Source of the DNA: Klebsiella phage Magnus
Reading direction: 5' to 3' (one strand)
Length of the DNA: 64,000 nucleotides
Sequence record: NC_049462.1
Below are positions 819 through 20,397 of this stretch, piece by piece; the first letter of the stretch is position 1, and each line of letters opens with the position of its first letter. The notes beneath the pieces are model-generated. The model was given only the letters and a program-made list of their open reading frames with translations. It ran no database searches and had not been told where the DNA came from. A program made the position numbers and the translations under genes.

Positions 819-1505
819 TCAGGGCACAGTCCTTGCTGGCAGAACTCCCACTGGCTCAATACCTTCCACCAGAAGGGAGTTCACGCCTACATCGCTCAAC
901 CTAATCCATATCTTCCCACCAGGCTTAATTTCAAAAACGTTCATTTCATTCCCAACCGCTTCATTATTCACAAATACACCTTGTGTTGCTATCCTTACAG
1001 GTTTCTTCGTGTTGTTTGTGATTTGAAATGTAACAGTTATATCCGTGGTCAGATTAACTCCCTGTCTCATGGTGTAACGTTTTATTTTGTCGTAGAAAGA
1101 TGGGTTGAATGTGATGATGATGCTGTTGTTCTGGGAGTAATAAATACTTGCTGACAAGTAAGGAATTTTGCCTTCTTCCCCTTTGCGTAAAAGAGGGATG
1201 GTGGTTTTCCAGTATGGTCGCAAAGTGTCTTTATTATCAAAACAACCGACAGGCTGGAGATTTTGGAAACTTTGAAACAAAATAGTGGCCTCATCCAGCA
1301 TGGATTTTTCACATTTGTTACTGTCTGTTGAAATGGTTACTGGTACAACACGGACATCAGTATCCCAGAGGTCACTAACGGAAATGATGGGCGTGACGAA
1401 AATACGGCAACTTGTCAATACAAGTACCATAAAAATCACCACAATCCATCTTCTGATTCCGCGCATCAGGGACACAATTATTCTCCACGGTAAAGGTGCT
1501 AACAA
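819..1505 (-). CDS. Hypothetical protein, putative lipoprotein.
   Basis: N-terminal hydrophobic segment followed by a lipobox-like LTSC (VIFMVLVLTSCRIF). Diverges from the neighbouring + strand gene. Confidence 0.35.
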   Translation of the reverse strand: MLAPLPWRIIVSLMRGIRRWIVVIFMVLVLTSCRIFVTPIISVSDLWDTDVRVVPVTISTDSNKCEKSMLDEATILFQSFQNLQPVGCFDNKDTLRPYWKTTIPLLRKGEEGKIPYLSASIYYSQNNSIIITFNPSFYDKIKRYTMRQGVNLTTDITVTFQITNNTKKPVRIATQGVFVNNEAVGNEMNVFEIKPGGKIWIRLSDVGVNSLLVEGIEPVGVLPARTVP

Positions 1506-2005
1506 TGTCTACTTCAGTCCAATTTAAACATGACAACCCAAATTATGCAGCATCCGATAAGTGGCGCTTAACTATCGGTGACCTGATATTGTTATCCCGC
1601 TCTGTACACGATTTTAGCATACCAGGCGTGTATTCCGAGGGCATCGATGGGCCTTCGCCCGGTTCAGTGCTCAACACGATCCCTTCTGAACGTTTAACAT
1701 ATGATCCCATCGTATTTACGTTCGTTATCGATGAGGATTGGGTAAACTGGGAAACCATCTACAACTGGATAGCCAGTAACGCCGCCGCTGATATGGCTGT
1801 TAGCAAAGATATCACCATAGAATTACTCAACAACATGAACCGCCCGGTTGGCCTGCAACTTCTGTTGGAAGAAGCACGTCCAACTGCACTGGACAACGTT
1901 CTTGTTGATGTAGACGCTTCTGTTCCCCAATTAGTTACAACGGTGACTTTCAAGTATCTGAAACTGACACCGACCCGTGTTGTCCGCGAAATTGATAAAG
2001 AATGA
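1496..2005 (+). CDS. Hypothetical protein (probable ATG start at 1505).
   Basis: ORF with an in-frame ATG at 1505. No recognisable motifs. Confidence 0.4.
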   Translation: MLTMSTSVQFKHDNPNYAASDKWRLTIGDLILLSRSVHDFSIPGVYSEGIDGPSPGSVLNTIPSERLTYDPIVFTFVIDEDWVNWETIYNWIASNAAADMAVSKDITIELLNNMNRPVGLQLLLEEARPTALDNVLVDVDASVPQLVTTVTFKYLKLTPTRVVREIDKE

Positions 2006-2021
2006 GTTATAATAGAGAGAG

Positions 2022-2507
2022 TTGAAAAGGTGGGAATATTTTATGGAAGTTAACAACACTCAATATCAAACGATGTCTATAGAGGACATCATGGCTGAAC
2101 TGGATCCACTGATTACGGTTGATCCGGCTGATCGTAATTTAGATCAGATTTCGTTGAAGATCGGGCGTTCCTTTATGACAGTGCAGCGGCATTACATTCG
2201 TGAAGGGCGTTATCTGGAATACCTGACTGGGCGGTTTAAACAGATTGATGTTTATCTGCGCAGGTATTATGCCGGGGAATTACCTGCGCAATCGTATCGC
2301 GAACGCCCTCTCAACAACAAACCACTGAAAACTGATCTGCCTCTATGGGTTCAGGCCGACGATATGTATATCGAGATGTCCGGGCTTCTACAAGAACAGA
2401 AAGCGAAGGTGAAATTCATCGAAAGTTGTTTGGATCGTTTGAACAAGCTGGGTTATGAAGTGAAGAATGCCATAGATTGGAGAAAATACATGGATGGCGG
2501 TTACTAA
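2022..2507 (+). CDS. Hypothetical protein.
   Basis: ORF; its stop overlaps the next gene's start (TAATG). Confidence 0.4.
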   Translation: MKRWEYFMEVNNTQYQTMSIEDIMAELDPLITVDPADRNLDQISLKIGRSFMTVQRHYIREGRYLEYLTGRFKQIDVYLRRYYAGELPAQSYRERPLNNKPLKTDLPLWVQADDMYIEMSGLLQEQKAKVKFIESCLDRLNKLGYEVKNAIDWRKYMDGGY

Positions 2508-3253
2508 TGAGCCAACTCCAGGTACTCAAGAAGATCAACAATATTGAGGAACGTCAATATACATTTCAGCAGTACGAATTACCGTACAAGGAGCTGACTT
2601 GTGTAACGAACGAGAATGGACGCCATTACGTTTCCCCAACAGGGGTGAAGTTAACCTCTGTAACAACAATGTTGGGGCGTACCAGTGACCATACATGGTT
2701 GGATGCCTGGGTCGAAAGGCTTGGAGTTGAACAAGCAGCAATTGAAGCACAAAGATGCGCTGATAGGGGAGAGGCAGTGCATCTTGCTTGTGAATTATAT
2801 CTGAAGAATGCGCCGATGAAAGATGTTGTGGCCGCCGCCGGACAATATCTGTTCATGTTCATGCAATTGTTTCCCTATCTGAATCGCATGACAAAGATAT
2901 ATGCCCAGGAAATACCTCTATATAGCGAAGTATTGGGCTTGGCCGGGCGTGTGGATTTAATCGGGGTGTACAACGGAACCCCAGCAATTATCGACTTCAA
3001 GACTTCCAATACTCTGAAAACCAGGGACATGATAGAGGATTACAGCATACAATTGTGTCTGTATTCAGTTATGTTTCAACAGATGTTTAATGTCAAAATC
3101 GAGCGTCTCATCAACATTATATCCAATGAGAATGGTTTACTGCCGACAGTAATAGAATTCCACAGAAAAGATATTCTCCCAAAAATGTTCGAGCGTGTCC
3201 GTTTATATCACCGTATGGACAAGGAACAGAATGGAATCTGGGCAGACCGCTAA
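2507..3253 (+). CDS. PD-(D/E)XK-type nuclease-like protein.
   Basis: D...D/E-x-K arrangement: GRVDLIGV ... IIDFKTSN. Start is coupled to the upstream stop. Confidence 0.45.
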   Translation: MSQLQVLKKINNIEERQYTFQQYELPYKELTCVTNENGRHYVSPTGVKLTSVTTMLGRTSDHTWLDAWVERLGVEQAAIEAQRCADRGEAVHLACELYLKNAPMKDVVAAAGQYLFMFMQLFPYLNRMTKIYAQEIPLYSEVLGLAGRVDLIGVYNGTPAIIDFKTSNTLKTRDMIEDYSIQLCLYSVMFQQMFNVKIERLINIISNENGLLPTVIEFHRKDILPKMFERVRLYHRMDKEQNGIWADR

Positions 3254-3280
3254 ATACTCCATATAATTGGGAGGATTGGT

Positions 3281-4798
3281 ATGGCCGACATTTCTGTGAC
3301 CAAAGTGAACGAAGTCCGTATGCGTGTGCATGCTGAAGCAGGGATCTATGAAGAACTAAATGATTACTTCAAATTTGAAGATCCCAACTTTCTGCCTAAT
3401 CCTTTCAGCAAATGGGATGGCGTCGTCCGCCTATTTACCAAATCTTCCGGCCTGATTGACATCGGTCTTCTGTTTGAACTCTTCAAATTTTGTAAGACCA
3501 ACGGTTATTCACTTGACGTGGATCCTGCATTGAAATATATCCAGGACATCCCTGACAATGAAATCCATGATTTCTGTAATAATTTGAAAACACAAATTCG
3601 CACAGAATCTGGGGAATACATTGATGCTGAAGTTCGGCAGTATCAATTCGATTCCATCGCCACTGCCATGAGGCAATCTCGCTGCGTCCTCGAGCTGGCT
3701 ACAAGTGCCGGTAAATCCTTTATTCTTTATGTGATGGCCCGTTACTACAGGGAAAGGCGAGAAGCGCTCGAAAGTAATCTGAGGACGCTTATCGTTGTTC
3801 CTTCCGTACACCTTGTAAGACAATTGTACGAGAACTTCGAAGAATATAGCCATGGACAATCCTGGAACCCGTTCTACCAGGTACAAACCATATGCGAAGG
3901 TGCAACCCGCAATATTGATAAACCCATCACAATTTCCACATGGCAAGGCATACAAGACCAGCCAAAGGATTGGTTTCATCAGTTTGGCGATATCATTGTT
4001 GATGAAGTGCATACTTCAAAGTCAGATAAACTTTCTTATATCCTCAACAACTGCATAAATGCTGACCAACGCCTCGGGGTTACTGGTACTTTGGCGAACA
4101 CTAAAGTTGCTGGTCTGCAGGTGGTATCCCACTTTGGTGCCTATCACAAGATCATCACGGCTCGAGAACTGATAAGTATGGGATATGCGGCTGATATTAA
4201 AATCCGGATGATAGAATTGAAACACAGATTGGCCGACGCTATTGATATGCATGGTGCCGATTATCAGAAAGAAATGGAATATTTGATATCGAACGAAGTT
4301 AGAAACCGGCTTATCGCCAAGATGGCTTTAACATTAAAGGGTAACGTCGCCATCATGTTCGAACGTATTGATGCCCACATGATGATCGTGTATGACATCC
4401 TCAAAGAAATAAAGCCAAACGTATTTGTCATCAACGGGGAGGTCAAATCAGCAGACCGCATGCAAATACAAAGGGCGATAGAAGAAGGTGAGGATATTAC
4501 TCTGTTGGCATCTTATGGAACGATGCAACAAGGGGTTTCTATAAAGAAACTTCATCATCTGGTATTGGCACACCCAAGCAAATCATATATCCGCGTCATC
4601 CAGACTCTTGGACGATTGATGCGTCAGCACTCAACAAAAGACGTGGCACTCATATGGGATTTGGTAGACAATTTGAGTTATAATGGGAGTTACAATCATG
4701 CGTTGCGTCACTCTCACGAGCGATACAAATTCTATTTGACAGAGCGCCACCCTGTAGAATTGAAAAGAGTGGCGCTGGAAGATTATTTGGGGTCTTGA
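3281..4798 (+). CDS. uvsW: UvsW-like SF2 DNA/RNA-DNA helicase.
   Basis: N-terminus NPFSKWDGVVRLF resembles T4 UvsW NPRFRYGNWDGRIRLL. Walker A TSAGKS, DEVH box (IIVDEVH). Length 505 aa, close to T4 UvsW. Confidence 0.85.
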   Translation: MADISVTKVNEVRMRVHAEAGIYEELNDYFKFEDPNFLPNPFSKWDGVVRLFTKSSGLIDIGLLFELFKFCKTNGYSLDVDPALKYIQDIPDNEIHDFCNNLKTQIRTESGEYIDAEVRQYQFDSIATAMRQSRCVLELATSAGKSFILYVMARYYRERREALESNLRTLIVVPSVHLVRQLYENFEEYSHGQSWNPFYQVQTICEGATRNIDKPITISTWQGIQDQPKDWFHQFGDIIVDEVHTSKSDKLSYILNNCINADQRLGVTGTLANTKVAGLQVVSHFGAYHKIITARELISMGYAADIKIRMIELKHRLADAIDMHGADYQKEMEYLISNEVRNRLIAKMALTLKGNVAIMFERIDAHMMIVYDILKEIKPNVFVINGEVKSADRMQIQRAIEEGEDITLLASYGTMQQGVSIKKLHHLVLAHPSKSYIRVIQTLGRLMRQHSTKDVALIWDLVDNLSYNGSYNHALRHSHERYKFYLTERHPVELKRVALEDYLGS

Positions 4799-5166
4799 TC
4801 CACATAGGCGGGCGTTGGCTCGCCTTCTTCACTGTCGTCAACCAAACCCAGGAATGCGTCGATACTATCACAACAACGTTGTAACAGTTCCGGCTTGATG
4901 GTTTTGTTGATGACCGCCTGATTTTTGTTGATGAGAGGGAACACTTTTAATTCGCCGAAGTTGCTCATATTGACGATCGCAACATAAAGCCCTGGCTTGG
5001 TATTACCCGACAGGAATGAGAATGGGACTTCCTTGGCAGTGTCTGATTTCGTTTCATCAACTAAAACTTTCAAAAGAGTAGTGCTTGTTGTCTCACTACC
5101 CAATTTCCGGCTTGCCATATCTCCGTGGCTGTACCCTACGGCATAGATTGCTACTAGTTGTTTCAT
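4783..5166 (-). CDS. Hypothetical protein.
   Basis: ORF on the minus strand, convergent with uvsW. No motifs recognised. Confidence 0.3.
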   Translation of the reverse strand: MKQLVAIYAVGYSHGDMASRKLGSETTSTTLLKVLVDETKSDTAKEVPFSFLSGNTKPGLYVAIVNMSNFGELKVFPLINKNQAVINKTIKPELLQRCCDSIDAFLGLVDDSEEGEPTPAYVDQDPK

Positions 5167-5489
5167 GCTATTCGTCTCGTGTTGTTTGCATCCTTATATA
5201 ATAGTCTCATGTTATGTTTAGACCAATTTAAAATAATTTGCCTTTCGGATTAAAAAGTCCTTTCTTGTTGAACAAATCCGTCGTACTATACGAGTTGTGA
5301 GCTTTGCGAGCAACGAGTATTAGGGGTTTACGAGCGAAGCGAGTTGATTAATATAAATTAATAGATTAATCTATTTCGTTAATAATTTGCGCGCGAAGAG
5401 ATTTAACACTTGTTCTATATCCCCAAATGGGCGATACTAAATTGCGTCAACAACATGACTTGACTTCACTATATCTTGAGGATACATAA

Positions 5490-6158
5490 ATGCAAGAAAT
5501 TACTCTGTCGGAACGCACTCTGCAACTTCTGGCTAACTTTGAAACCATCTGCCCGTCTATCGTCCTGACTCCTGGCAAAAAGCTGCGTACCGTAAATGAC
5601 GCATCGACGGTTATCGCCATCGCCGATATTGACGAAGACTTCCCGTTCGAATTCCCGATCCTCGATCTAACCAAGCTGCTGGCCATCCAGCGCCTGCCGA
5701 GTTTCAAGAGCGGTAAGATCGAAATGTACGAAGATCACGTGCTGCTCAAAGGCGAAAACTCTCAACTGCAATTCTGGCGCTCGGCCAAAGAACTGACCAC
5801 AGTTCCGGCTGATACCATCGATCTGCCGTCGGTTGATTTCGAAGCAACTGTATCGCCGGAAAAAATGAAAGAGCTGATCCGCGCGTGTTCTACTCTGGGC
5901 CACAAAACTGTCCGCATGGTCGCCAGCGGCGGCAAAACCCGTCTGGTGGGTACTACTCCGGCGATCGACAATTCCAACGATTACACCGTTGAATTGGGCG
6001 AAACTGCGCTGGGTGATTTCTCCATGCCGATCGACGTTGTCAACCTGAAAATGATCGAAGGCAACTATACTATCCGCGCCTGCACTGAAATGCAGCTGGT
6101 CAATTTCCAATCGGTCGACGGCACCATCAACTATTACGTCGGCATGCAGCTGGAATAA
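5490..6158 (+). CDS. 45: Sliding clamp (T4 gp45-like).
   Basis: 222 aa with SD GAGGA. Sits directly upstream of the gp44/gp62 clamp-loader genes as in T4. Has a C-terminal acidic tail. Confidence 0.8.
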   Translation: MQEITLSERTLQLLANFETICPSIVLTPGKKLRTVNDASTVIAIADIDEDFPFEFPILDLTKLLAIQRLPSFKSGKIEMYEDHVLLKGENSQLQFWRSAKELTTVPADTIDLPSVDFEATVSPEKMKELIRACSTLGHKTVRMVASGGKTRLVGTTPAIDNSNDYTVELGETALGDFSMPIDVVNLKMIEGNYTIRACTEMQLVNFQSVDGTINYYVGMQLE

Positions 6159-6192
6159 TCTTCAATATCTATCTGTTGCTTTAATATCGTTG

Positions 6193-6217
6193 CAGGGGCG
6201 GAAAGCCCCTGTATTTT
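6193..6217 (+). terminator. Rho-independent terminator after gene 45.
   Basis: caggggc-ggaaa-gcccctg followed by a T-run. Confidence 0.6.
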
Positions 6218-6243
6218 GAAACGCATCATCTAAAGAGGCTGTA

Positions 6244-7242
6244 ATGTCTAATATCACAATCGTTGGTGACCAATACGCATGGGAAAACAAATATCGTCCG
6301 GATAATCTGGATGAGATCGTACTCCCTCGGGACGTCCGTGCCAAGATCCATGGCTATATCACTGGTGGTAATGGCAACATCCCGTCAATGCTGTTCTACT
6401 CACCGAAACCGGGTACTGGTAAGACCACGACTGCTCTGGCGGTTTGTAATGAAATCGGCTGCGTCAAGCCGCTGATGATCAACGCATCCCTGGACAACAA
6501 CATCGACACCATCCGCGACAAAGTTATCCAGTATTCGACTGGCGTCAGCGTATATGGCGGACGGAAAGTCGTTATCCTGGATGAAGCCGAGCGCCTGTCT
6601 ATGGCCGCTCAGGAATCGTTGAAAGGTATTATCGAGAAGGTGAGCAAAAACTGCTCGTTTATCCTCACCACCAACTCCAAATCCCGTCTGAACGAACCGC
6701 TGGTTTCCCGCTGCCGTGAAATCGACTTCATCTGGACCGACAAAGAAGCACATGAAGTGCAGCTACAGTTCATGCGGCGCTGTGCTGAAATCCTTGCTGC
6801 TGAAAACGTCGAAGTCGATCTGAAAGTCCTCGGCCGGATCATTCCTCAGTTCTTCCCGGACAACCGTAAGATCATGGGCATCTTGCAAGACAATGCCTCC
6901 ACCTACGGAAAAATTGATGAACGCGCTTTGGCCGTCGTCAACGCAGGCGGTATGCGCCAGCTGGTTGAAGAGATGAAGGCCAACAATTGGGCTGGCGTTC
7001 GGCAATGGGTGACTGATAATCAGAACTATATCGGTGATGATTTTTATTCACGTTTCTTCCAGTTCTGTGTACCACAAGACAAAAGCAAACCCCGCTTGTT
7101 GGCCGACAATTCTAGCATCGTGGATATGGTTGCTCTGTGTGGTCAGGCACAAATAGAGCATCGCCAAGCTGGAGATGTATGGCTCCATGCGGTTTACTTC
7201 CTGACTAATGTCATGATCACCATGAGTAACAAATGGAGCTAG
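6244..7242 (+). CDS. 44: Clamp loader large subunit (gp44, RFC-like AAA+).
   Basis: N-terminus WENKYRPDNLDEIVLP (RFC box). Walker A PKPGTGKTT, DEAE box (ILDEAERL), SRC motif (SRCREI). Confidence 0.9.
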   Translation: MSNITIVGDQYAWENKYRPDNLDEIVLPRDVRAKIHGYITGGNGNIPSMLFYSPKPGTGKTTTALAVCNEIGCVKPLMINASLDNNIDTIRDKVIQYSTGVSVYGGRKVVILDEAERLSMAAQESLKGIIEKVSKNCSFILTTNSKSRLNEPLVSRCREIDFIWTDKEAHEVQLQFMRRCAEILAAENVEVDLKVLGRIIPQFFPDNRKIMGILQDNASTYGKIDERALAVVNAGGMRQLVEEMKANNWAGVRQWVTDNQNYIGDDFYSRFFQFCVPQDKSKPRLLADNSSIVDMVALCGQAQIEHRQAGDVWLHAVYFLTNVMITMSNKWS

Positions 7243-13236: not shown

Positions 13237-14091
13237 ATGTTTCGTTTGAGATTGAACGACCAAGATGTGTTCTACAAACACTTCACCTTTCCGGGCGGTG
13301 AGGAACATATCAAGATTCAAAAGGCGGGTATCCCTGTTGGTAAAATCCAGACAGTGGTAATTGACGCCCACATTAAATCGTCAGCAGACTTCATTGAGCT
13401 GGCACTGTTGGTGAATGCCGTGCGCGGCCTGGGTAATGTCGACCGACTGACAACATTTCATGCTTATATCCCTTATTTTCCATATGCCCGTCAGGATCGT
13501 CATTGCGACTTTGGTGAACCTCTTTCGGTGAAGTGGGCAGCAGAGTTCATCAATAGTATGAACTTTGACCGTGTGGCTATCAAAGACCCTCACAGCCATG
13601 TTGTGTCTTCTTTGATCAACAACGTCCATGTTGTCCCGCAAGATTACATTGCTCGCCAGTACCTGGGATGGTTCATCCGTGGAAACAACGCTGTGTTAGT
13701 AGCCCCTGACGGTGGCGCGGCGAAGAAGACTGAAACCCTCAGCCTATCGCTGGATGGCGTTCCTGTTGTCTACGGACATAAGAACCGCGACACCAAGACA
13801 GGCGAGATCATTGGGGTGAGTATTACAAACCCTGAACTGATCAAAGACCGCTATCTGGTTGTGGTAGATGATATCTGTGACGGCGGGCGAACGTTTGTTG
13901 AGCTGGGCAAAGAGCTTCAGAAGCACGAGCCTAAGCACATGACCCTCTTCGTTACCCACGGCATTTTCAGCAAAGGCCTCTCTGTGTTCGACGGGATCTA
14001 CGATGCTGTGTATGCCGACACTGTCTGGTGGGAGAACATCACTGCCGACGGTCTTCCATTCAAAACTGAAAATACAGGACGTGTAAAATGA
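13237..14091 (+). CDS. prs: Ribose-phosphate pyrophosphokinase family protein (Prs-like; alternatively an ADPR-PP synthetase of NARP1 type).
   Basis: PRPP synthetase motifs: FPYARQDRH (PP-binding loop), LVVVDDICDGGRTF (PRPP-binding site). 284 aa. Confidence 0.75.
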   Translation: MFRLRLNDQDVFYKHFTFPGGEEHIKIQKAGIPVGKIQTVVIDAHIKSSADFIELALLVNAVRGLGNVDRLTTFHAYIPYFPYARQDRHCDFGEPLSVKWAAEFINSMNFDRVAIKDPHSHVVSSLINNVHVVPQDYIARQYLGWFIRGNNAVLVAPDGGAAKKTETLSLSLDGVPVVYGHKNRDTKTGEIIGVSITNPELIKDRYLVVVDDICDGGRTFVELGKELQKHEPKHMTLFVTHGIFSKGLSVFDGIYDAVYADTVWWENITADGLPFKTENTGRVK

Positions 14092-15740
14092 GCATGCGCC
14101 ACTTAGATCCAATCCATGCAATCGACTTCTACAAATCAGGGCACATCTATCAATTTCCTGAAGGTAGCGAGCTGGTGTTCTCCAACGGAACTCCACGCTC
14201 CAACAAACTGTTCAACTCCCACCTGCCGAAGAACGGCGTGGTGGTCTGGGGTATCCAGGGCTTCATGACCTGGTTCCACGAACTGTTTGATGAAGCGTTC
14301 TTCCAGCGCCCAAAGGCCAAGGTGCTGAAGAAGTATGCCCGTCGAATGAACAAAGTTCTCGGACCAGGCCGCGTTGGGACAGAGCATATCGAAGCCCTGC
14401 ACGACCTCGGCTACCTGCCTATCGAAGTCCGCGCTCTACCCGAAGGCACCATGTGCCCGTATGGTGTTCCAGTATATGTGATGTTCAACACCTTGCCGGA
14501 GTTCTACTGGCTGACCAACTATCTGGAGACGGTGTTCAGCTCTGAGATCTGGAAGCCGATGACGAACGCAACCATTGCCCTGCATTACAAGGCGCTGATG
14601 GTGAAAGCCGCTATCGCTACAGGCGTGTCGCCGGACCATTGGTTCATCGACTACCAAGGCCACGACTTCTCCTTCCGTGGTATGAGCGGGTGGCATGACG
14701 CGGCGTCTTCCGGTTCTGGCCATCTGGTGTTCTTCAAAGGCACCGACACCAACCCTGCCCTGGACTTCGTTGAAGAGTATTATGGCGCGGATATCGATGA
14801 AGACTATGTCGTTGCTGGCTCTGTTGCAGCCACCGAACACGCCGTGATGTGCATGGGCACGAAAGATGGCGAATTCGAAACCTTCCGCCGCCTGGTACAG
14901 GACGTGTATCCTGATGGCATCGTCAGTATCGTTTCTGATGCATGGGATTACTGGCAGGTCATCGACGACTATCTGCCGCGCCTCAAAGATATCATCATGG
15001 CGCGTAATGGCAAAGTTGTGATCCGCCCCGACTCTGGTGACCCAGTGCATATCGTCGGTGGTTATCGCGTCGAAGAATTTTGCAATGAGCAGGATTTTTA
15101 CGATAACGACCCACGTGAAGAAACTGAAGTTATCTATCTCAAAGAAGAAAACAGATACCATATTCTGGAACAATATCAGTTTAATCAGATCGGGGAAGAG
15201 ATTTCTCGTTCAGAAGCGGTCGGTTCTATCCAGCGCCTATGGGAGATCTTTGGCGGAACCCAGACCGAAACGGGCCACTTCCTGTTGGATGAGCATATCG
15301 GCCTGATCTACGGTGATTCCATTACCCTGAGCCGTGAAGATCAGATCTTTGCTCGTCTGGCTGAACGTAATTTCGCTTCCATCAACGTAGTGTTCGGTAT
15401 CGGTTCCTATACTTACCAGATGAACACCCGTGATAGTACCGGGACGGCGGTGAAAGCAACGGCTGGGAAGGTCAACGGTGAATTCCGTGAGATTTTCAAA
15501 GAACCGAAGACTGACAAAGGTGGTACGAAGAAATCTGCGCGTGGTTTCCTTAAAGTCATTAAAGACTCTCAGGGTAAACTAGTGTTGGTTGACGGTATCA
15601 CCTTTGATCAGGTGCAAGACGCCGACAACCAGCACCAGCTGGTGTATCGTGATGGCAAGTTCTTCAACACCCAAACTCTGGAAGAAGCGCGTTTTCGTGC
15701 CGCTCCTCTGGTGGAAGAATTGGCATCACAAATATGTTGA
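14088..15740 (+). CDS. nadV: Nicotinamide phosphoribosyltransferase family protein (NadV/NAMPT-like; alternatively a Namat).
   Basis: NAMPT-family features: N-terminus DFYKSGH, GTEHIEALHDLGYLP, RPDSGDP, YGDSIT. Start overlaps the prs stop (ATGA). 550 aa. Confidence 0.75.
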   Translation: MSMRHLDPIHAIDFYKSGHIYQFPEGSELVFSNGTPRSNKLFNSHLPKNGVVVWGIQGFMTWFHELFDEAFFQRPKAKVLKKYARRMNKVLGPGRVGTEHIEALHDLGYLPIEVRALPEGTMCPYGVPVYVMFNTLPEFYWLTNYLETVFSSEIWKPMTNATIALHYKALMVKAAIATGVSPDHWFIDYQGHDFSFRGMSGWHDAASSGSGHLVFFKGTDTNPALDFVEEYYGADIDEDYVVAGSVAATEHAVMCMGTKDGEFETFRRLVQDVYPDGIVSIVSDAWDYWQVIDDYLPRLKDIIMARNGKVVIRPDSGDPVHIVGGYRVEEFCNEQDFYDNDPREETEVIYLKEENRYHILEQYQFNQIGEEISRSEAVGSIQRLWEIFGGTQTETGHFLLDEHIGLIYGDSITLSREDQIFARLAERNFASINVVFGIGSYTYQMNTRDSTGTAVKATAGKVNGEFREIFKEPKTDKGGTKKSARGFLKVIKDSQGKLVLVDGITFDQVQDADNQHQLVYRDGKFFNTQTLEEARFRAAPLVEELASQIC

Positions 15741-16204: not shown

Positions 16205-16957
16205 ATGTCTAACAGAACTGGTATTAAACTCAATCCAGAAATCCTTAAATCCCATATCGCGGAAGTTATCTATGAAGACCGCGAAGTGGGAGGGCATCGT
16301 GTTATCACTTGCCATTTGAAAATGGATAACGGATTTGTCGTTTGGGGAAAGGATAGCTCAACATCTATTGACCCCAAAAATTTCGATGAAGAATTGGGCA
16401 AGAAATTGGCATACGATAAGACTTTCTCTCAATTGTGGGAACTGGAAGCATATCGGGCTATGGTTGTCCAAGATTTCATTGGTAAGACAACTGAAGAACC
16501 GTTTATAAAACTTGAAGATTATATTGAAGAAAGTAAGACAATGCAAGTATCCGGTTGGGACTATCGGAATGGTGTAGCCACCGCATATTCTATTAGATCA
16601 ATTAAAAGAAGTAAATTTGGATTGTTGGATTACATCAGCATTTGTCTTTACAAAACTGATAATAAAAAACATGATGATATCAATAATTCGAAAGAAATAC
16701 AGAAAGCAAAGGATTTCATCAGATCTTATATGAATCACACTGAAATTAATAGCCAGTTTGTAATTCATATCGCAAAACTTTGTTGGGCTGCTCGGTCAGC
16801 GGTTGTGGACACTACACCTTCTTGGGAAGATTCTAAAGAAACAGATCGCCAAGATATGTGCGAAACGGTTAAAAAATTACTGTTATCCCCCAGCGATTAT
16901 CAACCAAAAGATAATTTGTTGAAATTGTTTTGGGCGATTGTGTCCCAATTCCGATAA
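16205..16957 (+). CDS. Hypothetical protein. The N-terminal ~110 aa resemble the phage Gp49/Gp66-like family.
   Basis: ITCHLKMDNGFVVWGKDSSTSIDPKNFDEELGKKLAY pattern. AT-rich; C-terminal half unrelated. Confidence 0.4.
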   Translation: MSNRTGIKLNPEILKSHIAEVIYEDREVGGHRVITCHLKMDNGFVVWGKDSSTSIDPKNFDEELGKKLAYDKTFSQLWELEAYRAMVVQDFIGKTTEEPFIKLEDYIEESKTMQVSGWDYRNGVATAYSIRSIKRSKFGLLDYISICLYKTDNKKHDDINNSKEIQKAKDFIRSYMNHTEINSQFVIHIAKLCWAARSAVVDTTPSWEDSKETDRQDMCETVKKLLLSPSDYQPKDNLLKLFWAIVSQFR

Positions 16958-17521: not shown

Positions 17522-19720
17522 ATGATTGAATCATTAGAATTTAAGAATGCCACACAGACGGTTGCTCCTTCCAATCACGTCATCGTCGTTGACATTTCTT
17601 ATTCCATGTGCTATGCGCTGCCGAAACTGCGCCAGCACCTGAAAGAAAACCTGCCCTCTCTGGTTAAGCCGGAAGACACCATCAGTATTCTGTACTTCTC
17701 TTCTCGTGGCGACTTCGGTACTGTGTTCGCTGGGCGCCAGGTCAGAAACGCATCTGACCTGAGTGAGCTGGGCAAACTGATCGATCGCTTCCTGCAACCG
17801 ACGGGCTGCACCGGATTTGTTGAGCCGCTCAAGCTGGCTATCGAAACCGCCAACGATCTGAAAAAGTCCGGCGTCATCAATTCCCTGGTGTTCATGACCG
17901 ACGGCTATGACAACTGCTGGCGTTCCAGTGAAATCCTGGCCGTTGCTGAGCAGCTGCCAAAAGCATACGACAACATCACCCTGATCGAATACGGCTGGAA
18001 CTGCAACCGCGAACTGCTGCAGAAAATGGCTGAGTGCTCTGGTGCAACCCATGTATTCGCCGAAGGCCAGGAAGAATATCAGACCGAACTGGAAACAGCG
18101 ATGGTTTCTGTCGCTCCGCGCGTTCGCGTTGATTTCAGCGTCATCTATTCCTATGCCGTTTATATCGAAAACGGGATTCCGACCATCCTGGCCGCCCAGT
18201 CTGATGAAGACCATCCTATCAATTACGTCAACATCCCTGAGAGCGTCTCTAAGCTGTGGGTTGTTGATCCTGATATGATCGACCAACTGGATAACCTGGC
18301 GGACGTTGAAGCGGCATATGTGCTGGCTCTCTTTGGCGTGCATACTATGGATGCCGACCTGGTGTGGGCCGCGCTGAAAAAGACTGGCGATGTGCGCTTC
18401 ATTAAACAGTACACCAACTGCTTCACCAAGCAGGATTATTCCAACATCAAAACTGACATTACAGCAGCGATTGTAGACCCGGCGCTGCGCGGTGTGGACG
18501 GTATCGATTACAATCTGGTGCCGCCGGAAGACGCAACTACTGTTGTTGATGTTCTGACTTACCTGGCGGGAGCAGACGCACAACTGGTTGTTGACCATCC
18601 CCTGTTCTCTTACAAGCGGATCGGTCGCGGTACGGTACAAAAAGCCGACGATACCGAAGACAAGCTGGCGGCAGAAATTGCCGAAGCCAAATCTAAAGAA
18701 GAGCGTAAAGCGCTGGCCCTGAAACTGGCTGAACACGAAGACTGGACTCCTGTGTTTGAGCCAGTGAAAGGCGCGGGCGTTCCCATCAGCAATCTGGTTT
18801 ACAACTCCGCCCGCCCGAACATCAGTCTGCAGACTGTGCAAAACGGGACCGTCATCATTCCGAAGTTCGCCCAAAAGAAATACGATCTGCCGGAATCTAT
18901 TGACACATGGCAGTGGAAGAACTACACCATCGTCAAAGACGGTATCATCCATATGAAGACCCTTCCTGTGGTCTGCTCGGCTGAAACCGTATCTGAACTG
19001 GTTAGCAAAGGCGTTGAAGTTTACGGCGGGCCGGAAGTGTTCATCGTAAATCTGGGCAGCGTTCCTCTGGTTAACCGCGCGATGGTTAAGAACATCAGCG
19101 CCGCGCAGTTCTTTGCTGACCATGTCCGTCTGGAATCCCTGAAAGCCAAGCAGAAGGTTCTCAAATACTTCCGTGACGAACTGGTTGGGAAAGGTAATGC
19201 CGTGGGCCTGGCGGGCAAATACGGTGCCGAAGCGGCTGAGTTTCTGTCTGCGAATGGCATCCGCGATTACGGCTTCTCTCCGAAGACCGCTTCGGTTGAG
19301 TCTACTGATTTCTACATGAGCCGCGAACTCAATGTGAAGATCAAAGGCGCTTCCTCTCTGCCGTCAATTGCCGCCGTTCTGAAGAAACAGGCAGACAACA
19401 AAAAGCTGAACGCAGCTGATCAGCTGATCGCTAATGCGCTGGCAGAATACAACGCCTTTGTCAAATCTCCGGCGGTGACTGCAGTCCCGGAAGCAACGCA
19501 GGCCAAGATCATTGAATCTTGGATCAGTGACGCTGCCAAGGCCGCAATCACCCAAGTGCGTGAGCTGAACAAGACCCTGTCCAAATCCCTGTATGCCATC
19601 GTTGCTGGCCATGGCTGGTTCACCGACCTGGATCTGGAAGAGTCCACCATGGAAGTGGAAGTTGACGGTGTGAAATACACCGTCAGCGCAGTGCTGGAAG
19701 AGAAAGAGATCAAAATCTAA
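17522..19720 (+). CDS. von Willebrand factor A (vWA) domain protein, 732 aa.
   Basis: MIDAS residues: VVDISYSM (DxSxS) ... PTGCTG ... FMTDGYDN. High-GC codon usage. Long C-terminal region of unknown function. Confidence 0.65.
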   Translation: MIESLEFKNATQTVAPSNHVIVVDISYSMCYALPKLRQHLKENLPSLVKPEDTISILYFSSRGDFGTVFAGRQVRNASDLSELGKLIDRFLQPTGCTGFVEPLKLAIETANDLKKSGVINSLVFMTDGYDNCWRSSEILAVAEQLPKAYDNITLIEYGWNCNRELLQKMAECSGATHVFAEGQEEYQTELETAMVSVAPRVRVDFSVIYSYAVYIENGIPTILAAQSDEDHPINYVNIPESVSKLWVVDPDMIDQLDNLADVEAAYVLALFGVHTMDADLVWAALKKTGDVRFIKQYTNCFTKQDYSNIKTDITAAIVDPALRGVDGIDYNLVPPEDATTVVDVLTYLAGADAQLVVDHPLFSYKRIGRGTVQKADDTEDKLAAEIAEAKSKEERKALALKLAEHEDWTPVFEPVKGAGVPISNLVYNSARPNISLQTVQNGTVIIPKFAQKKYDLPESIDTWQWKNYTIVKDGIIHMKTLPVVCSAETVSELVSKGVEVYGGPEVFIVNLGSVPLVNRAMVKNISAAQFFADHVRLESLKAKQKVLKYFRDELVGKGNAVGLAGKYGAEAAEFLSANGIRDYGFSPKTASVESTDFYMSRELNVKIKGASSLPSIAAVLKKQADNKKLNAADQLIANALAEYNAFVKSPAVTAVPEATQAKIIESWISDAAKAAITQVRELNKTLSKSLYAIVAGHGWFTDLDLEESTMEVEVDGVKYTVSAVLEEKEIKI

Positions 19721-19764
19721 TCAACTGTGCCGGGGAAACCCGGCCTTTTCATAAGGTATACCAA

Positions 19765-20088
19765 ATGTCTAAGAATGTGTCTTATATCGATGTCATGCGC
19801 TTCCTTGTCCAGTATGCAAGCGACAATCTGAATATGGAACTGTGGCGTGAGAAGAAACACTCCGTAACAATACAATCCGCGATTGAAAAAATCGAAGACC
19901 AGCTGGATACCCTGGCTCCTCTGCGCGTCAAAGAACATCTGGGTGGCGATGAACTTGACGCGATAGAAATCATCATGGAACTGGAAGAAGAATATGATGT
20001 AGAGATCACGGATCATTGGATCGGGTCTCACCAAGACGACCCAACCCTGGGTGAATTGGCTGAACACGTGGTTCACCTATTAAAATAA
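19765..20088 (+). CDS. Acyl carrier protein-like protein with the phosphopantetheinyl-Ser replaced by Glu.
   Basis: HLGGDELDAIEIIMELEEEYDVEI aligns with E. coli ACP [24 protein letters not shown]. The DSL serine position is E. Confidence 0.65.
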   Translation: MSKNVSYIDVMRFLVQYASDNLNMELWREKKHSVTIQSAIEKIEDQLDTLAPLRVKEHLGGDELDAIEIIMELEEEYDVEITDHWIGSHQDDPTLGELAEHVVHLLK

Positions 20089-20099
20089 TTTTGAAGTTG

Positions 20100-20160
20100 G
20101 CTTTACTTCTTCAATAAATGATTTAATATTAATTTTGTAGGGCGGGAACGGCTCCCGCCT
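20100..20160 (+). promoter_or_regulatory. Promoter-like box plus stem-loop (PeSL-like element).
   Basis: gCTTTACTtCTTCAATAAAtgatttaatattaat followed by the hairpin ggcgggaacggctcccgcc. It sits 20-80 nt upstream of the 20182 ATG. Confidence 0.45.
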
Positions 20161-20181
20161 GATTGAAGAAGGTGCTATATT

Positions 20182-20397
20182 ATGGCTATATCACAAATTG
20201 TCGACCTCACCCCGTTTTGCCTCAACAATATTTCAAATCCTAAATTAGTCTTGTACAAGGACCCAACTAATTTTTGTTGGTTAGCAAGCTGCGACACCCA
20301 CAACGGAAGGCGTGCTGTTTGGGATTTCCCCGCGACCGATGAGGGGCGCATACTTGCTATACGCAAATTGGAATCAGAAAATTCTAAACGCGGGTGA
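20182..20397 (+). CDS. Hypothetical small protein.
   Basis: ORF, SD GAAGGTG. Confidence 0.35.
   Translation: MAISQIVDLTPFCLNNISNPKLVLYKDPTNFCWLASCDTHNGRRAVWDFPATDEGRILAIRKLESENSKRG

Follow-up and report, generated by a model that had tools for sequence, protein, structure and literature searches.

A conserved phage protein with the acyl carrier protein fold has an acidic residue in place of the 4'-phosphopantetheine serine

What does a homologue of acyl carrier protein (ACP) do in a phage when the serine that should bear 4'-phosphopantetheine is missing? The question is raised by a small gene of Klebsiella phage Magnus (NC_049462.1; Table 1), for which a first-pass annotation, made from the letters alone, had proposed an ACP-like protein with glutamate in place of the attachment serine. 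The stretch of 64,000 nucleotides analysed here (the window) shares 98.9% identity with Klebsiella phage Madison and ~95% with 0507-KN2-1 and Menlow, and therefore belongs to an Ackermannviridae phage of the Taipeivirus type. The gene is preceded by a ribosome binding site (AAGG, 8 nt upstream), and its product is acidic (pI 4.5), with 24 Asp and Glu residues against 9 Lys and Arg. The hairpin ahead of the gene has a folding energy (dG) of -13.7 kcal/mol, and the Madison and LIMEstone1 records both have a terminator annotated at the same place; the LIMEstone1 record has another at the place equivalent to the hairpin downstream of the gene. Around this second hairpin, the intergenic positions 20086..20182 (+) form a long nested stem-loop (dG -28.8 kcal/mol, z -3.7 against shuffles) which, as it has no clear T-run, may be more than a simple terminator.

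Table 1. Coordinates of the ACP-like gene, its segments and its flanking features in the window
Feature	Position	Strand	Remarks
ACP-like gene	19765..20088	+	107 aa / 107 codons
Codon 63, GAA = Glu	19951..19953	+	Where ACP has its 4'-phosphopantetheine serine; opens helix II in the model
Helix II recognition region, residues 59-81, LGGDELDAIEIIMELEEEYDVEI	19939..20007	+	From alignments
Residues 1-50	19765..19914	+	~27 residues more than AcpP ahead of helix II
W85-x-G87-x3-D91-D92-P93-T94-x-G96, between helices II and IV	20017..20052	+	Family-specific; 3-4 residues longer than in AcpP
GC-rich hairpin GCCGGG-GAAA-CCCGGC, then CTTTT	19729..19744	+	Terminator-like; between the vWA gene and the ACP-like gene
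Hairpin GGGCGGGA-ACGGC-TCCCGCC	20140..20159	+	Downstream of the ACP-like gene; nested in a longer stem
732-aa vWA protein, upstream neighbour	17522..19720	+	Complete MIDAS D24-x-S26-x-S28, T97, D127; candidate partner only

The protein matches the Pfam PP-binding family (PF00550) at 31.5 bits, against a gathering threshold of 20.8 (E 2.1e-7), over profile positions 26-67 only. When all PDB sequences were searched with phmmer, 99 matches were returned and the best 60 of the 99 were ACPs, every one; at the top stood B. subtilis ACP (E 7.5e-7), whose DSLD is aligned to DELD. Residues 58-81 read HLGGDELDAIEIIMELEEEYDVEI, exactly as first reported, and residues 56-84 are identical to residues 29-57 of E. 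coli ACP (EcACP) at 16 of 29 positions. The NCBIfam AcpP equivalog and subfamily models gave at best 32.8 bits, below their cut-offs of 66-106, with residues 54-84 alone matching. A full-length match was found to phrog_4154 (E 4.1e-54; residues 1-107 on profile positions 1-108 of 108), which is named 'acyl carrier protein', a name that is an annotation rather than an established function. An AlphaFold model from 19 homologues (mean pLDDT 76; only one of the five models is confident, though in agreement with that in BFVD) places helices at 7-21, 24-29, 33-41, 43-50, 63-77, 83-88 and 95-106, and the independently predicted BFVD model of the ViI orthologue superposes on it over its full length (TM 0.88). 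In the model, Glu63 is predicted to open helix II at the point where E. coli ACP has Ser36. We have shown that the protein has the four-helix ACP fold, and the structure prediction, together with the Pfam and PDB matches, bears out its first assignment as an ACP-like protein.

Glu63 (GAA) is aligned to EcACP Ser36, so that the proposed replacement of the attachment serine is correct for this phage. Each of the 30 distinct family genes, from six genera and metagenomes, and each of the 33 cluster representatives has E or D at this position, and never Ser. In a family alignment made up of the window protein and 18 of the 33 cluster representatives, drawn from a 5.8-billion-protein database, GGD-E/D-LD is present in 19 of 19 sequences, with Asp in Vi01. 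A profile search of 1.84 billion representatives returned only 10 matches below 1e-10, and the full-length ones all have E or D. The codons used at this position are GAA (19), GAT (10), GAC (5) and GAG (5), and no others (35 loci, 30 distinct gene sequences); a rough neighbour-joining tree gives at least four switches between E and D, and the median pairwise dN/dS is 0.25. Across the six genera and the metagenomic relatives, down to about 30% identity, position 63 is never S, T, A, N, Q or G. Selection for loss of modification alone would predict neutral residues too, and the strict E/D pattern therefore indicates that the carboxylate itself is selected. On this comparison of sequences, Glu or Asp at position 63 is kept by selection, beyond the mere absence of serine, and a strict requirement for a carboxylate, rather than for any residue other than serine, is an unusual feature that calls for explanation.

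As the serine is replaced, the canonical phosphopantetheinylation site is absent and the protein would carry no acyl group there, in keeping with the proposal that it could not be converted to holo-ACP. Sequencing error had been considered unlikely, and it can now be ruled out together with a strain-specific mutation, because every homologue has E or D and Ser codons lie at least two nucleotides away; whether relatives keep Ser or Glu, a check suggested at the same time, is thereby answered, as no homologue has Ser.

The acidic swap is not general to phage ACPs, since phiRSL1, BCSR5 and a Manatee Spring siphovirus retain Ser. Like the family described here, Ralstonia phiRSL1 ORF083, Burkholderia BCSR5 and Vibrio phage 277E43-1 have PP-binding domains among small early-type genes, but the first two read GGDSLD and GADSLD, whereas the third has Asn (GFDNLD). 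The Ser in the unrelated phage ACPs of phiRSL1 and BCSR5 indicates that the swap is lineage-specific, and the Asn in the Vibrio phage indicates that Ser has been lost more than once. The Vibrio phage protein (OX241464, 2480-3013; 177 aa) consists of an N-terminal ACP-like domain followed by a C-terminal extension of ~95 aa, and is an independent serine-less phage ACP-like domain. Among prokaryotes, the strict motif LGGD[ED]LDx[IV]ExxM gave only two real matches in one genome for each of 185,579 species, namely a planctomycete lipoprotein-like protein and a Hyphomicrobiales fragment. In the Planctomycetaceae MAG CAVQSF010000039, positions 1713-2348 encode a lipoprotein-type signal (…LALMLGCSQ), a GGDDLD ACP-like domain and a C-terminal extension; this seems to be a bacterial ACP-fold domain that is exported and cannot be modified. 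Metagenomic E/D variants are scattered, mostly on short phage-like contigs. The short E/D ACP-like proteins P0044, P0050, P0052 and P0111 were set aside as a source of genomic context, as they lie on short phage-like contigs with uninformative neighbours (that of P0052, 11.5 kb long, has ThyX and an HNH nuclease and no vWA gene), and the multi-domain E/D proteins, being just tandem PP-binding domains or weak, uninformative fusions, gave no clue either.

Conservation extends along helix II. None of the 30 distinct family genes has lost D62, [E/D]63, L64, I67, E68, M71, E74 or I81, and a single one (L029, with Ser) departs from Asp at position 65. These conserved positions together make up one face of the helix. 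By alignment, D62, E68 and E74/E75 correspond to D35, E41 and E47/E48 of EcACP, the AcpS ion-pair residues whose neutralization abolishes modification by AcpS (bioRxiv 10.1101/2025.01.28.635281), and M71 takes the place of M44, on which SpoT binding depends (PMC3340395); D65 likewise falls among the positions that match EcACP residues involved in AcpS pairing or in SpoT binding. With this acidic face of helix II, ACP docks on the basic patches of its clients; it is shown by these alignments to be conserved and, as judged from the gene sequences, under purifying selection. That this docking surface is retained had been noted in the first-pass annotation. However, every ACP is most conserved in helix II, so that this conservation alone does not point to host clients, and a phage partner would select for it equally.

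Outside helix II, the family has a conserved amphipathic helix at 7-21 (Y7, V10, L14, A18, N21 and L22), then a variable helical segment at 24-50. The W85...G96 segment is invariant in the 19-sequence family alignment and is common to P0044 and P0052, which are short, phage-like and outside the Ackermannviridae; it is absent in Miltonvirus 3M. The Miltonvirus orthologue also lacks residues ~25-48, so the residues at that place are either an N-terminal extension or a loop-I insertion. Since this orthologue is without both family-specific features yet keeps its Glu, the carboxylate is the more fundamental feature. Invariant R54/K56 were considered as a salt-bridge partner for E63 and dropped, as they are not conserved in more distant members.

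The family is widespread. Matches to the ACP-like protein were found by tblastn in 269 phage records, all of them covering at least 80% of the query, from phages of Salmonella, Klebsiella, Escherichia, Dickeya, Shigella, Serratia, Enterobacter and Yersinia. The gene is present in Taipeivirus, Kuttervirus, Agtrevirus, Limestonevirus, Miltonvirus and Nezavisimistyvirus and in CRW-SP2, and the label "acyl carrier protein" stands on most of the matches listed from these records. In Erwinia phage vB_EamM-Bue1 (Nezavisimistyvirus; MG973030), an ACP-like ORF with DELDYIEFIM lies directly after the vWA gene, within a stop-to-stop ORF that starts at position 5747 of the locus, and is unannotated in GenBank. 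The distant full-length relatives P0034-P0042 and P0051 were rejected as independent contexts, as all lie on Ackermannviridae-like contigs with the same gene order; they add divergence and no new context. Two records look mislabelled or contaminated. The acpP of 'Acinetobacter phage MD-2021a' (CAKLQH020000007) lies on a bacterial rpmF-fabD-fabG-acpP contig filed as phage, and was discarded, and OR844942, labelled 'Enterococcus phage Efm 3-10', nevertheless has a vWA gene of the Kuttervirus type (76% identical). In the literature, nothing specific was found on the function, expression timing, interactions or missing serine of this family. The gene family is thus already known and named, and the loss of its serine seems to have gone unnoticed. 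Serine-less ACP-fold proteins as such are already known from apicomplexan mitochondria; what seems to be new is a viral ACP homologue in which the serine has given way to acidic residues only.

How does this protein compare with known systems? AcpP (E. coli ACP and B. subtilis ACP, 1hy8; PF00550) has Ser36 where the phage family has Glu or Asp throughout. The phage protein also differs from AcpP in its additional residues before helix II and its W...DDPT insertion, in being phage-encoded with no linked fatty-acid synthesis or transferase genes, and in falling far below the NCBIfam AcpP equivalog cut-offs. ACP folds also serve as structural subunits, such as SDAP/ACPM of complex I, T. brucei mt-SAF32, Tetrahymena ATPTT11 and the ACP subunit of the Ycf2-FtsHi motor. 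The complex I subunits keep acyl-phosphopantetheine, which is inserted into the partner, and we know of no such ACP-subunit assembly for this phage. Plasmodium falciparum mACP (Ser to Phe) and its apicomplexan relatives resemble the phage protein in conserving the ACP fold after loss of the cofactor serine (PMC8547962). Plasmodium mACP is functional through protein binding alone, and the replacing residue, Phe113, is part of the interface with its partner, the LYR protein Isd11, an arginine of which contacts the cofactor phosphate in canonical complexes (PMC8547962). Nevertheless, the residue in mACP is a hydrophobic Phe (Cys or Gly in Toxoplasma), whereas that of the phage family, which belongs to lytic phages, is always acidic, and there is no close sequence relationship between the two. 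Beyond the Apicomplexa, the same study reported a Ser-less ACP in one chromerid only (PMC8547962). The phage family shows what is expected of a cofactor-independent ACP-fold protein, an ACP fold in which the serine has been replaced in a conserved, selected way.

We tentatively favour the reading that the protein is a non-acylatable ACP mimic acting on a host client, which we regard as quite possible though somewhat short of probable. Such a mimic would work purely by protein-protein binding, with helix II docking on the ACP-binding site of what is most likely a host protein. At the N-terminus of helix II, the carboxylate would supply the negative charge of the cofactor phosphate, or else ligate a metal ion, and residues 1-50 and the W85...DDPT loop could add affinity or specificity. 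The outcome would be a holo-like but chemically dead complex, in which the client is blocked or rewired during infection. The nearest precedent for a decoy mechanism is E. coli apo-ACP, a cofactor-free ACP that blocks a client enzyme and strongly inhibits both glycerol-3-phosphate acyltransferase and growth (review PMC3896788). In that case, however, the host's own protein is over-expressed artificially and can be returned by AcpS to its modified form, whereas the phage protein would be permanently unmodifiable, with a negative charge at the site. ACP also binds SpoT, IscS, MukB and SecA outside lipid synthesis (PMC8602292, PMC13343975). The inhibition by apo-ACP, these regulatory contacts and the interface residue of Plasmodium mACP make a binding model reasonable, and the earlier suggestion of a decoy or inhibitor of host lipid synthesis or of ACP signalling is plausible on this analysis.

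What might the client be? AcpP is present at ~100 uM, or 86-358 thousand copies per cell (PMC8602292), and at that abundance simple competition at the abundant fatty-acid synthase (FAS) enzymes is unlikely; a competitor would need either a much higher affinity or a scarce target. The target would thus more likely be a low-copy protein regulated by ACP (for example AcpS, PlsB, SpoT, MukB or IscS) than the bulk FAS enzymes. Apo-ACP is reportedly not bound by SpoT (review PMC3896788), and MukB responds with the same stimulation to the apo and the holo form (PMC8602292), so that the effect of a Glu variant is unpredictable; to name SpoT as the target is to assume that Glu can replace the cofactor there. 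A more specific version of the favoured reading is that Glu or Asp mimics the phosphate of 4'-phosphopantetheine, making a permanently holo-like ACP that cannot be loaded and that jams one low-copy host hub (AcpS, PlsB, SpoT, MukBEF or IscS). This version we think somewhat unlikely, but, if it is true, the protein would be the first viral ACP mimic and would offer a natural probe of the non-lipid signalling of ACP.

The genes around the locus bear on what the partner or function might be. No fatty-acid synthesis, acyl-transfer or phosphopantetheinyl transferase gene was found within about 10 kb of the ACP-like gene, and no Ackermannviridae record matched an AcpS-type transferase (tblastn with an approximate E. 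coli AcpS query, covering AcpS-type enzymes); host AcpS is available to the phage in any case. Farther upstream, a 284-aa ribose-phosphate-pyrophosphokinase-like gene (13237..14091, +; phrog_619) overlaps by 4 nt a 550-aa nicotinate/nicotinamide phosphoribosyltransferase-like gene (14088..15740, +; phrog_448; NF006629 match, 475 bits). The pair resembles the phage NAD+ reconstitution pathway NARP1 (Adps and Namat), which counters NAD-depleting defence systems. At 16205..16957 (+) lies a gene for a 250-aa protein with an N-terminal Phage_gp49_66 domain (N4 gp49 / Sf6 gp66 family; E 8.7e-13), and this gene is conserved upstream of the vWA block in relatives. The vWA protein itself is phrog_2426 (annotated as of unknown function) and is ~734 aa long across its family, in which the MIDAS motif DxSxS...T...D is invariant. 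In a model with a pLDDT of 88, its N-terminal ~290 residues comprise a vWA domain and a beta-sandwich that resemble 4fx5, ArnB, Sec23/24 and the inter-alpha-inhibitor heavy chains. The protein has been found in LIMEstone1 virions (PMC3296691). In a bacterial JGI contig (3300009320; here L044), positions 1397-6417 hold genes for an ECF sigma factor, a YfbK-like vWA protein, a 543-aa product and a DELD ACP-like protein, the last two of which could belong to a single reading frame of 670 aa. The contig gives a second and independent instance of an acidic ACP-like domain close to a vWA gene. The ACP-like gene of Magnus had been placed directly after the vWA gene, which is right, and in an 'accessory island', which is inaccurate, since the gene is conserved throughout the family, as is its place behind the vWA gene.

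This neighbour suggests a different reading, in which the protein is a partner or adaptor of another phage protein, specifically of the adjacent vWA protein, and Glu/Asp63, exposed where helix II begins, completes the metal coordination of the MIDAS. In integrin I-domains and anthrax-toxin receptors, the MIDAS metal binds a Glu or Asp of the ligand, and an exclusive use of Glu and Asp is the pattern that a metal-ligating residue would show. The MIDAS motif is intact and invariant, and the gene immediately upstream is that of the vWA protein in Taipeivirus, Limestonevirus, CRW-SP2 and Nezavisimistyvirus and in eight of nine metagenomic contigs examined, the ninth of which ends at the upstream gene. 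The numbers of records are nearly equal (268 for vWA at 60% identity or more, against 269 for the ACP-like protein), one peptide of each protein was found in Sajous1 virion preparations, and in L044 the DELD domain lies two genes downstream of a vWA gene. However, the region is collinear across the Ackermannviridae, so that adjacency may be inherited gene order; the terminator-like hairpin separates the two genes; and, although the ACP-like gene follows the vWA gene throughout, three small genes intervene in Miltonvirus. The vWA family as a whole spans 485 phage records, from the Ackermannviridae to the Straboviridae (Slopekvirus KP15, Pseudotevenvirus GAP161) and pf16, and in KP15, GAP161 and pf16 the 3.5 kb around the vWA gene hold no ACP-like ORF (the records with vWA and without the ACP-like gene number about 217). 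These vWA-only phages rule out an obligate pairing and weaken the idea of a MIDAS ligand. Furthermore, the E or D state is accompanied by no correlated change near the MIDAS motif, and the vWA model contains no ACP-client fold. We therefore consider a partnership with the vWA protein unlikely.

The remaining explanations fit the conservation pattern less well. A general acidic mimic built on the ACP scaffold, such as a DNA mimic or an anti-restriction or anti-defence decoy in which the extra carboxylate just adds charge, would suit a small and acidic protein encoded in a region of small genes without assigned function, near an NAD-salvage pair that is possibly an anti-defence module. Nevertheless, the net charge is below that of E. 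coli ACP itself (pI 4.05), conservation is focused on helix II positions and one site and is not surface-wide, and no anti-defence family was matched in libraries other than padloc, and we judge this explanation quite improbable. That the protein might still be a carrier, loaded elsewhere or through Glu/Asp chemistry (for example an ester or ADP-ribosyl linkage), is suggested by the Pfam match above threshold, by the invariance of T94 in the core family and by a Mod-type ADP-ribosyltransferase gene 1 kb downstream in one metagenomic relative. However, Miltonvirus lacks T94, the family as a whole has neither a conserved Ser nor a conserved Cys, the gene has no transferase, synthase or acyl-transfer gene linked to it, the NCBIfam ACP equivalogs score no more than 33 bits against their much higher cut-offs, and even S36T inactivates E. 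coli ACP (PMC3340395); a carrier of this kind is very improbable. Finally, the gene could be what is left of an ACP gene captured from a host or a phage, decaying and with no present function, as the catalytic serine is the first loss to be expected of a pseudo-carrier. This reading is strongly disfavoured, to the point of being scarcely credible: the reading frame is intact in all 269 records, the dN/dS is low at the median already given, the family-specific residues are invariant, and the acidic residue has been maintained through synonymous and E/D changes even in the most distant relatives.

In summary, the conserved, mis-annotated ACP-fold protein described here, a non-carrier at the canonical site, is real. 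The label "acyl carrier protein", and its filing as an auxiliary metabolic gene, are misleading, as carriage at the canonical site is impossible. Correcting the label matters for phage-therapy genome reports, because many of the phages that carry the gene are candidates for therapy or biocontrol. ACP is a protein hub, and little is yet understood of its contacts with SpoT, MukB, IscS and PlsB; a natural, strongly selected and unmodifiable variant with a fixed negative charge at the cofactor site would be a tool with which docking could be separated from carrier function. If a host client is indeed targeted, the protein would reveal an ACP-dependent process that a large lytic phage needs to control.
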